Shown here one piece after another: positions 17,301 through 20,300 of a stretch of DNA of 64,000 bases (its first letter is position 1; each line of letters begins with the position of its first letter). Origin of the DNA: an uncultured Nitrospiraceae bacterium (GTDB lineage Bacteria > Nitrospirota > Thermodesulfovibrionia > Thermodesulfovibrionales > SM23-35); assembly GCA_963727775.1 (NCBI GenBank), contig CAVSHB010000003.1, forward strand, positions 384,001-448,000, in the 5' to 3' direction. A program made the position numbers.

Positions 17301-20300
17301 CCTCTGAAATATACGACCCCGGCGATAAGCGGCAGCAGCCCAATCAGAAGAAGGCGGTATTTAAGCGGGACCGAGTTCATCAGACCCGCATCAGACAATG
17401 AACGACATCGACTCATGGGCATCGCAGAGCATGTCTTTCACAGGAAGACCATGGGGACAGCTGCCGATACAACCCGGATCAACACAGCCGGAGCAGGCTG
17501 ATGCGTTCTTTTTCAATAGGGCATAGGATTCCATCGCCCTCTTTTCCATGCCGTAGTCCCTGAAATACATCCGGTATCTCATGACCGAGGCGATCTCAAC
17601 TCCCAGGGCGCACGATCTCTCGCACTCTCCACAGCCTGTTCTGCAGTATTCGCTGCCATACAAACGGGCATAACGATCGAGGACATCCTGATCGGCGGCG
17701 GTGAATTTTCCGCCCGAGGCCTTAAGATAGAGCTCGATATCAGAAGCTGTCTTCATTGTGATGATGAGGCCGCTCACCTCCGGCTGCTTCAACACCCACT
17801 TGAACGCCGCATGGGAGAACTCCCCTCCTTTGCCTTCTACATTCATATCCTTTGCGCCGGCGAGGGTCTTCATGGCGATCACGCCCACCCCTTTTCTGTG
17901 GGCTTCCTTCATGACCTCGGGCAACTTCGGAAACTTCATGAAGTTGAAGGACGGCTGGATCAGATCGAAGCGGCCTGATTTAACCGCAATCATCAGGAGT
18001 TCTTCCATATTGTTGGGTCCGTGAGAAGAGGTGCCGAGAAAACGGACCTTTCCCGCCTTTTTCAGTTCAGCCACGGCCTCGAACATCTCATCATCTAGGA
18101 GCCTTTTTTTCTCGGCTTCCAGGTCTTTGTTCATCTCACCTATGGCGTGCACAAAACAGAAATCGAGGTAATCGGTCTTCATCCTCGACAGGCTTCCCTC
18201 GACCGAGGCAATGTAATCTTTCTTCTTCGAACCCAGAGGGAGATGACCGGGATACGGCTGGGGGTTACAGAATTTCGAGGTAATGATGACCTTGTCCCTC
18301 CGGATCTTGCCCATGGCTTCGCCGATCGTCTTTTCAGATTGGCCGTAATCCGGGGCGGTGTCAAAATAGTTGATGCCGCTGTCGATAGCCCTGAGGACCA
18401 TCGAGGCGGCTGAAAGTTTTCCGGCGCCGAAGGAAATATCACTCATCTTCAACCCGGTCTTTCCGATTTCACGATAACTTTTGACAGAAGGTATGCCGGC
18501 AACTGTTTCCGCATGAAGCGGAGGAACTGCCACAGCGGCTGCGGTGAGAGCCGCCACCTTGAGAAAATCGCGTCGTTTCATAATGAGACCTCCTCCTCCG
18601 GCTGATAGATGACATCACGCCGAAAAGTTATTAACACGCGGTCATTTATAATTAGCATACTAAATCAGCGCAAATTTTTAAAAGGACCACATATCATTTC
18701 GTATCGATTTCTATTTGAGGCAACGGGTCCCCGGGGACACCATAGTATAATCGCATGGCAAGAATCGCACGGCGTGTAACCGCTTCACCGGGGGGCATTA
18801 TTTTATACAGTTGAAAAAGGTTCAACTGATTCTCAATATAAGCCTTAAAGAGTTAATAACTAATGATAGTGAGGGATATTAATCAATAACAATTATTATC
18901 CGAATTAGATTAACTTCAAGCATTGTTTTTATCATTTAATCAGCTCTTGATATATCTCAAAAAAAGAGTAAACTTATAATCAAGAGAAGAAATTGCGATA
19001 CTCAGGACGGATTAAACCTGAGATTATAAGCAGTAAAGGGAGCGGGAGTTGGATGCGGTGATCAGCCTCCGGCAGTACCAGCAGTAAAGGAGGAAAGAAG
19101 CATCTGCCGAAGCCCCTTAGAAAGCTCAAGGTTTTCCGGATCTGAGTTCGCAAGTAAAAGAAATTGCGATACTCAGGGCGGGATTAAACCTGAGGATCAA
19201 CCGTAGAAGGGGAAGCAGGAGTTAGATGCCGGTGAGTAAGCCTCCAGCAGCGAGGAGGAAACCTAAAGGCATCTACCGAAGCACCCACTTAGACGAAAGA
19301 GCTCAAGGTATCCCGGAACTGAGATCGCAAGTTATGCTGGAGCCATAAAAGGGTGTTTGGTCATTCTGCCGAGGCAAAGGCAGAAGTTGAAATTGCCGGC
19401 GCAGAGAGGTTGTCCAATCAAGTTGAACCCTTAAATTGGCTCTATTTATTTTGTGCATATTAAGCTTTTCTTTTTTATAAATGTTTTTCTCTAATTTTTA
19501 TATGCAGCATTGGTAATCCCGGCCGTTGCCCTTTAAGACCAATATAATTATACAAAGCCTGCCCCGCCACGTTCTATTTTAATGCAATATCGACACTGCC
19601 GGCCTTCCGCTCGGATCGTTTTTTGCAGGGTCCCAAAGGATATAAACTTTGCCGTAGGTTTCTTCCATGCCTTTCAGCGTCTTTGCCCCTTCTTCAGGAG
19701 AAAGGTCAGGGAGAGTCGGCTCTACTTTCTTAAGCTCGATCTTATGGTAGTGCCAGAGCGCCTTTTCTTTCTTCGGGAATTTTTTCCATGTCTCTTTGTC
19801 CACAACCACCTCAACACCTATGAGCCTTGCATCCGGCTTGTCGCTGTCATAAAGCTGGCATTCAAAGAGTCCGCCTGATACTTGCTTGCAATAGTGGTGA
19901 GCGATCATGTCGGGCATCTTGGGAATATGCTTTTTTGCATTAATGTGGAGGGTCCAACCCTCGGTCGGTTTCATGTCCTGCTGTGCCGTCTTTTCCTCGG
20001 CAGACACCGTAAACATGACCAATAATGCAAAAGAAAAAACTAAGACTGAGATAGTAAATATCTTTCTAAAGGGCGGAGTAATGAATCCTTCCCGGACTTT
20101 GTAACCTTTTGATTGTTTTCAAAGTCTATTATAATAAAAAGAGATGGATAAGAAATTTCTTAATTGTGGAGGAGAGAATAAAAAAGCCTCTGCACAAAAG
20201 GAGATGGAAATGAAAAAGGCAGTTTGTGTTGTCGTTGGCGTTTTGTTACTGCTCTTTGCAATCACCATCCCTGGCTATGCACGTGATGGTGGTCACTTTT

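Follow-up and report, generated by a model that had tools for sequence, protein, structure and literature searches.

Within the 64,000-nucleotide stretch of DNA analyzed here (the window, part of contig C3 of the genome, G000, of a sediment bacterium of the class Thermodesulfovibrionia), the plus strand carries a tandem 6S-like unit inside a cassette of about 750 bp (18783-19535) that blastn and alignment reveal to be duplicated. Three loci of the genome share this cassette at 80-97% identity: the window copy, a copy at C3:112830-113573 that is 87% identical to it, and a copy at C1:~791860-792450 without the first rod. Together they hold five 6S-like rods in three transcription units, besides the canonical 6S gene at C4:341445, and each unit consists of a promoter, one or two rods, a conserved 3' hairpin domain of about 110 nt and a U-tail. 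By blastn, rods within this genome are 96-98% identical, and a second rod, 75% identical, lies directly upstream in both C3 loci.

An AT-rich segment ahead of the unit (18850-18946), weakly conserved across genera in an alignment of 24 upstream regions, is a possible regulatory region. It is followed by a -35 hexamer, TTGATA (18947-18952), found by promoter-site search, and, after a 16-bp spacer, by a -10 hexamer, TAAACT (18969-18974); from this spacing, transcription is predicted to start near 18982. Rod a (18993-19153; subtype IIa) folds with a z-score of -3.3 and scores 123 bits against a class-specific model. Rod b (19164-19330; subtype IIb; fold z -6.65) scores 186 bits against that model and 38.8 bits against the Rfam family RF00013, comprises a closing stem, a central bubble and an apical arm, and has no promoter of its own. 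The 3' hairpin domain (19338-19444; fold z -3.2) is laid out as a basal stem, an asymmetric internal loop and a variable apical part, and directly after its basal stem comes a U-rich tail (19445-19452), the probable 3' end of the RNA; a scan for short-hairpin terminators called no end near 19452. The predicted transcript (~18982-19452) folds as three separate domains, and the IIa/IIb tandem unit would, on this layout, be a single transcript with these two ends. The genome-wide survey's note had drawn the gene at 18930-19345, with a separate conserved motif downstream. The locus stands and the motif is real, but it is the 5' arm of the ~110-nt second domain, so the gene runs to ~19452. A protein-coding reading was discarded, the transcript containing just one ORF, of 40 codons. 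A 12-nt inverted repeat (18816-18827 and 19421-19432) brackets the unit; absent from the other two copies in this genome, it is probably there by chance.

The sigma-70-type promoter described in that note is indeed conserved, but not in the form given: instead of a 17-bp spacer with a TATAAT-like hexamer, 26 of the 29 promoter-bearing family copies have a 16-bp spacer with TAAA(C/A)T. Defined as TTG-N16..19-xAxxxT scoring at least 8/12, a promoter site is present in 29 of 30 family copies (shuffle mean 3.1) and in 15 of 19 copies from another order (shuffle mean 1.9), 14 of them with 16 bp. A cis-acting leader or attenuator of a downstream gene would also present a promoter followed by a structured stretch and then an end resembling a terminator. 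We consider this reading highly improbable, since the nearest downstream ORF lies on the opposite strand at 38 of the 57 loci that have one (by a crude ORF pick), including all three loci of this genome, and the downstream genes have no common function.

Signs of the unit also appear in RNA libraries. Its words have 20 holder runs, with 13 studies listed; six RNA runs contain a fifth to a quarter of these words, two of the runs being flagged as probably DNA. Contigs from all four RNA libraries examined (four studies) fall within 19001-19443, and some of them, reaching 31 letters or more into both neighbors, connect rods a and b in all four libraries, and rod b and the 3' domain in two. These contigs come from relatives and have no DNA control; they therefore speak for presence in RNA libraries and for the tandem layout, not for strand, ends, level or a single transcript. 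None of them covers the sequence upstream of ~19000 or past 19443, limits that are not counted as RNA ends because there is no DNA comparison.

Elsewhere in the window, a block at 20100-21140 with a gene for a glycine-zipper lipoprotein recurs at C1:1036542-1037576 and at C3:105205-106221, the latter at a distance of about 7 kb from the second tandem pair of C3. A palindromic element of 60-140 bp (21159-21309), REP-like by appearance, has ten other copies in the genome and a chance Rfam match to mir-577. Between 8849 and 13797 lie ORFs that we take to be transposase-like (8849-10384 and 10853-11605), another presumably resembling a Y1/RAYT-type transposase (11411-12355), and small ones with an assumed resemblance to toxin-antitoxin genes (12417-12746, 13177-13464 and 13477-13797).

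Detection and structure of the rods and the 3' domain

Against RF00013 the canonical 6S gene scores 102.5 bits, and the three below-cut-off matches reported by the survey were found again at 38.3-41.5 bits (E 6.9e-7 to 4.1e-6). The match in the window spans 19158-19337, and the score of rod b is under the gathering threshold of 46.4 bits; the upstream rods of both tandem pairs, rod a among them, have no RF00013 match. A class-specific rod model (R1), built from 31 copies, recovers all five extra genes, in two tandem pairs on C3 and one single copy on C1, at 117-186 bits, so that one profile does find them all, as had been claimed; the canonical gene scores 57 bits. A second model (R2) represents the 3' domain, for which Rfam offers no match at E<=1, and over the whole of 18982-19452 no Rfam family except RF00013 matches at that threshold. 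The multi-copy nature of the family is likewise borne out, with an RF00013 match in 56 of 57 genomes, two or more in 43 and a maximum of 6. The claim that many second copies pass the gathering score falls away: just 12 of the 77 non-canonical family matches do so. A 28-letter RNA motif has 35 exact matches in GTDB species genomes, every one of them under a Nitrospirota name (Thermodesulfovibrionia and Thermodesulfovibrionales included), and viral contigs contain no match; for a motif taken from the 3' domain there are 14 matches over the same taxonomic range.

Folds and z-scores point to a 6S-type rod of closing stem, central bubble and apical arm, with z below -2 in 31 of 31 rods and in 29 of 29 3' domains. 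The pairing that the survey had seen in its alignment holds at 92.8% of cells, a level that 0 of 500 shuffles reach, although the compensatory fraction is lower than claimed, at 13 of 49 pairs. Pairs taken instead from the Rfam alignment of rod b give 93.5% pairing, with 9 of 36 changed on both sides and again 0 of 500 shuffles. The survey had worried that the structure was derived from the same alignment, and here copies of another order that were kept out of the alignment still support the fold of the rod. Aligned to the model, 19 such rods are 85.1% paired with two-sided changes at 29 of 49 pairs; aligned by MAFFT, they are 78.6% paired with 25 compensatory pairs, against 38-49% and 7-15 in slid controls.

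The geometry of the rods can be compared with what is known of 6S RNA, a decoy for RNA polymerase that mimics an open promoter: PMC8876501 describes how the 3' side of the bubble resembles a -10 element and how the apical region, which resembles a -35 element, touches domain 4 of sigma. The central bubble measures 16/15 nt in class II (median) and 18/15 nt in the canonical genes, and the distance from bubble to apical helix is 29.5 nt in IIb versus 30 nt in the canonical RNA. Class II and canonical 6S have motifs in common on both bubble sides and in the apical arm, and these coincide with the -10-like and -35-like regions laid out in those sections. Subtype IIa has a bubble of 16/7 nt, its 3' side having 7 nt versus 15 (about 8 nt lost), and the conserved apical motif is altered in all 12 IIa rods aligned; these are the two main sigma-contact regions. 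Product RNAs are a further point of comparison. The part of PMC8414754 at hand gives a conserved GG at positions 4/5 or 5/6 of the product RNA; with the start site placed by alignment, class II has the upstream A and its predicted product RNA lacks this GG, and the canonical gene of this genome has both.

Alignment of 32 copies with their flanks gives a constant order of promoter, rod, 5-15 nt, a second conserved region and a U-rich tail. This second region, the 3' domain, is 93.1% paired, and two-sided changes occur at 9 of its 23 pairs, a result reached by 1 of 500 shuffles; the stem at its base does not vary, whereas a number of copies have lost the apical half. By R2 it starts no more than 25 nt after the rod in 58 of the 74 family rods above 90 bits, and four of the 16 rods without one nearby are upstream rods of tandem pairs. 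All five orphan 3' domains follow the 3' remnant of a rod. Sampling across the class finds the domain in 41 of 151 genomes, among them 28 of the 50 sampled from one family of another order; 19 of 20 domains fetched from that order have a rod directly upstream. Held-out 3' domains aligned by MAFFT keep 70% pairing against 28-45% in slid controls, and their compensatory pairs (4) are no more numerous than in those controls (4-5). Loci L121, L122 and L123 (in G006 and G004) are 5'-truncated remnants that retain the 3' domain and the last part of the rod, with the promoter absent. Derivation of the domain from the 23S processing stem was considered and dropped: its inner stem has a 7-bp echo of that stem, as seen in the 23S flanks on C3 of this genome, and blastn gave no significant alignment.

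A rival reading is that these RNAs descend from 6S but have ceased to be holoenzyme decoys and taken a new job, in which the 3' domain is the functional part and binds core RNA polymerase, in the manner of Ms1 or CoRP, or some other protein. At ~290-470 nt they are indeed nearer in length to Ms1 (~300 nt) and to CoRP (516 nt), as given in the accessible part of PMC11077062, than to 6S; the 3' domain has been kept across two orders; and IIa, with both sigma-contact regions altered, occurs alone with a promoter and a 3' domain. We nonetheless hold this to be unlikely. The rod retains 6S geometry and motifs, no Rfam family besides RF00013 matches the unit at E<=1, several copies have the apical half of the domain deleted, and the entire domain is missing from subtype IIc, the copies of family f6, class III and class IV.

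Classes of 6S-like RNA and their distribution

The survey had proposed one distinct, dispersed class of 6S with its own promoter. A separate lineage it is, but not a single class, since the extra copies span at least four classes. Among the 40 best non-canonical Rfam matches fetched, 29 belong to class II, seven to class III and four lie in rRNA leaders; 20 further weak R1 matches add 18 in rRNA leaders and two of class V. In a tree of 105 rods, whose root is arbitrary, the 26 canonical genes form one side of a branch with 100/99 support and classes II, III, IV and V the other. Mean identity is 0.49 between canonical genes and IIb and 0.81 within IIb. Subtype IIa (12 rows, including rod a of the window) is nested in IIb with support of 100/100. 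Each tandem pair combines two subtypes, IIa then IIb. IIa is the first rod of such pairs in this genome (twice), in G003 and in G005, and in several genomes it stands alone with a promoter and a 3' domain.

Class II is present in 38 of the 57 family genomes, with up to eight copies, and five more families within the order have it too; the relative with eight class II rods has ten 6S-like matches in all. Outside the class Thermodesulfovibrionia, nearly all sampled Nitrospirota have one RF00013 match, on limited candidate scoring. Class III (L038, L046, L048, L050, L062, L065, L067), class V (L135, L143) and IIc (L124:2021-2195, L126-L128) each have their own closing stem and upstream region, and none has a 3' domain. 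The class IV rod sits in the rRNA-operon leader, ~45-160 nt before the 16S gene, in 22 family genomes (L047, L051, L055, L063, L129-L134, L136-L142, L144-L148) and in four other families (L166, L169-L179, L186); the motifs on its flanks we take to be boxA-like.

Dispersal on this scale could also be the work of a selfish or non-autonomous mobile element, or the residue of decaying duplicates, with any expansion of sigma genes alongside reflecting general gene gain. The 96-98% identity of rods in this genome, the existence of truncated remnants, the co-expansion of a control family (see below) and the differing neighbor genes at the loci (103 flanking ORFs scanned, a few of them transposases or integrases) would all be at home in that account. 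It sits poorly, though, with the remainder of the record: the copies have no conserved terminal repeat or sharp boundary, their flanks fading gradually; the inverted repeats of the window are not common to other copies; no match was found in viral contigs, phages or plasmids; 22 of the 38 carrier genomes have a single copy; and promoter and compensatory pairing have been kept across two orders. Mobility or decay is thus, in our judgment, quite improbable as the explanation, and a maintained lineage of 6S paralogs is the reading we carry forward.

RpoD-like sigma factors

An RpoD-like sigma factor of 508 aa is encoded on the minus strand of the window (21770-23296), 2453 bp from rod b, in agreement with the ~2.4 kb reported by the survey. 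It is a duplicate within a dnaG-linked clade and one of eight such genes in the genome. A link between this sigma factor and the RNA is doubtful because the two are convergent and four ORFs lie between them. The survey had also placed second copies near RpoD paralogs in G017 and G023. Neither case was recovered here: the contig with the sole class II locus of G017 carries no RpoD-like gene, and the only second copy of G023 is of the rRNA-leader class, with the proviso for both that genome handles may be numbered differently.

Proximity was considered more widely as proof of partnership and rejected. An RpoD-like gene lies within 3 kb at eight of 70 loci, in six genera, where at most 1.07 would be expected, and nitroreductase genes, a control picked after they appeared among the neighbors and drawn from 150 of 188 rows listed, do so at no fewer than six of 70 (0.74 expected). 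In another order, 0 of 38 loci are within 3 kb of an RpoD-like gene (0.17 expected). The sigma factors near RNA loci are not one clade, requiring six changes on a quick tree, a number as low in 52 of 500 shuffles. A quick tree of 39 sigmas separates the dnaG-linked clade from one whose conserved member follows an rRNA operon; the window sigma belongs to the former and most of the dispersed paralogs sampled to the latter. In this genome the dnaG-linked sigma gene is at C1:855039-856598 and the rRNA-linked one near C3:30065-31500.

Family genomes have between one and 15 RpoD-like genes (15 in G005, 13 in G006), and class II copy number tracks this count with a rho of 0.70 over the 44 genomes at least 90% complete, falling to 0.48 after genome size and to 0.39 after size and nitroreductase count; the p-values overstate, because the genomes are related. 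Taken by genus (25 genera), the values are 0.71, 0.61 after size and 0.50 after size and nitroreductase count. Nitroreductase count tracks class II copy number as well, with partial correlations of 0.35 by genome and 0.43 by genus. In 12 other families of the order (119 genomes), class II was found in one of 33 genomes with a single RpoD-like gene, in seven of the 64 that have two and in 16 of the 22 that have at least three, family f2 supplying 12 of the 24 carriers. The case for a sigma link is accordingly stronger when argued from copy numbers that expand together than from neighborhood on the chromosome. A strict pairing of one sigma with one RNA was rejected, given that all 14 genomes of family f11 combine two RpoD-like genes with one 6S-like RNA.

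The rRNA-linked clade, from which the RpoD-like expansion mostly stems, is the sole RpoD-like match in G021, G023, G036 and G037. Operons with only 16S and 23S genes, followed by an RpoD-like sigma, were seen in L149-L154 and in this genome from C3:36234 (minus strand) to ~30065, where the leader rod has collapsed to a short hairpin; the other rRNA operon of the genome (C1:717894) has no such leader. Six of six operons fetched, chosen because rod and sigma were on one contig, show promoter, 6S-like rod, 16S, 23S and sigma in that order, and three of these checked against Rfam contain neither 5S nor tRNA. It is conceivable, though we would call it speculative and well short of an even chance, that such a module of rRNA-leader 6S-like RNA, 16S-23S genes and a second group-1 sigma was ancestral and gave rise jointly to the dispersed RNA classes and the sigma paralogs. 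On this rather doubtful proposal the canonical, rRNA-leader, IIa, IIb and III subtypes would form a sigma-selective repertoire in which every subtype suits a holoenzyme of its own and the 3' domain serves in docking or processing. If true, 6S RNAs would not be just one brake for stationary phase; they would make the competition among sigmas programmable.

Proposed function and comparison with known systems

The account we favor on balance is a 6S paralog lineage of the class Thermodesulfovibrionia, made up of RNAs with their own promoters that mimic promoters for group-1 sigma holoenzymes. A sigma-70-type promoter would drive one RNA of ~290 nt (one rod) or ~470 nt (tandem rods), whose rod would imitate an open promoter, bind RNA polymerase holoenzyme carrying a group-1 sigma, and probably template short product RNAs for its release. 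The 3' domain would end the transcript through its terminator-like basal stem and U-tail, and may well double as a processing or protein-binding module because its internal loops are conserved. For IIb, holoenzyme binding is the most likely function because this subtype keeps 6S geometry, a case argued by analogy in which we have reasonable if incomplete confidence. In IIa, the altered contact regions would fit altered specificity better than decay because the clade is conserved with its own promoter. With so many group-1 sigma holoenzymes in these genomes, the most likely benefit of additional copies is greater capacity or finer specificity. Several observations count against this account: the class II scores below the Rfam cut-off and the absence of any match for rod a, the changes at both main sigma contacts in IIa, the GG missing from the predicted product RNA, the nitroreductase correlation and the two RpoD-like genes with one 6S-like RNA in family f11.

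In the literature surveyed, as far as its accessible text goes, a bacterium has no more than two 6S RNAs, and binding to the holoenzyme with the primary sigma is what those tested show. Genomes of Thermodesulfovibrionia hold up to ten 6S-like rods in several conserved classes, beside up to 15 RpoD-like sigmas, with an undescribed 3' domain in one class and an rRNA-leader location in another. What determines which sigma a 6S RNA prefers becomes testable in vitro with RNA variants that differ at the -10-like and -35-like regions and sigma paralogs whose region 4.2 varies. Annotation pipelines miss most of these copies because they fall below the Rfam cut-off. We found no account of a 6S homolog that carries a 3' domain, of copy numbers this high or of 6S RNAs in these taxa, in a literature that leaves out two surveys likeliest to list second copies (PMC4615782 and PMC1370762) and the supplements of bioRxiv 10.64898/2026.10.21.760802, which may contain matching intergenic clusters. 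What is new here is the expansion in copy number and its parallel with the sigma genes, together with the IIa/IIb tandem and the class tree.

The closest relatives in design are the 6S/SsrS RNAs themselves, including 6S-1 and 6S-2 of B. subtilis and 6S and 6S2 of Legionella, where two dispersed copies are on record in the available portions of PMC4211561 and PMC8414754. The present RNAs resemble them in the rod of ~165 nt with a central bubble and two arms, in bubble-to-apical spacing and in motifs, but their rods fall below the Rfam cut-off and carry a conserved ~110-nt 3' domain; here, moreover, there are five extra rods and several co-existing classes, and copy number tracks that of RpoD-like genes.

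Ms1 and CoRP, the actinobacterial RNA polymerase-binding RNAs (~300 and 516 nt, CoRP being cleaved in two, according to the excerpted text of PMC11077062), are likewise structured and longer than 6S. The unit has no Rfam match of that kind, the CoRP sequence itself lying outside the comparison, and unlike them it is a clear 6S homolog, found in a lineage where the canonical 6S has been retained. The tandem arrangement finds its best parallel in ssrSA-ssrSB of the Bacillus cereus group, in which, as described in the sections of PMC7726162 at hand, two rods are co-transcribed from one promoter and the second has none of its own. The pair in the window has a like layout, as do those of G003 and G005, and differs in joining a IIa rod to a IIb rod followed by a 3' domain, in standing beside a canonical 6S, and in being itself duplicated.
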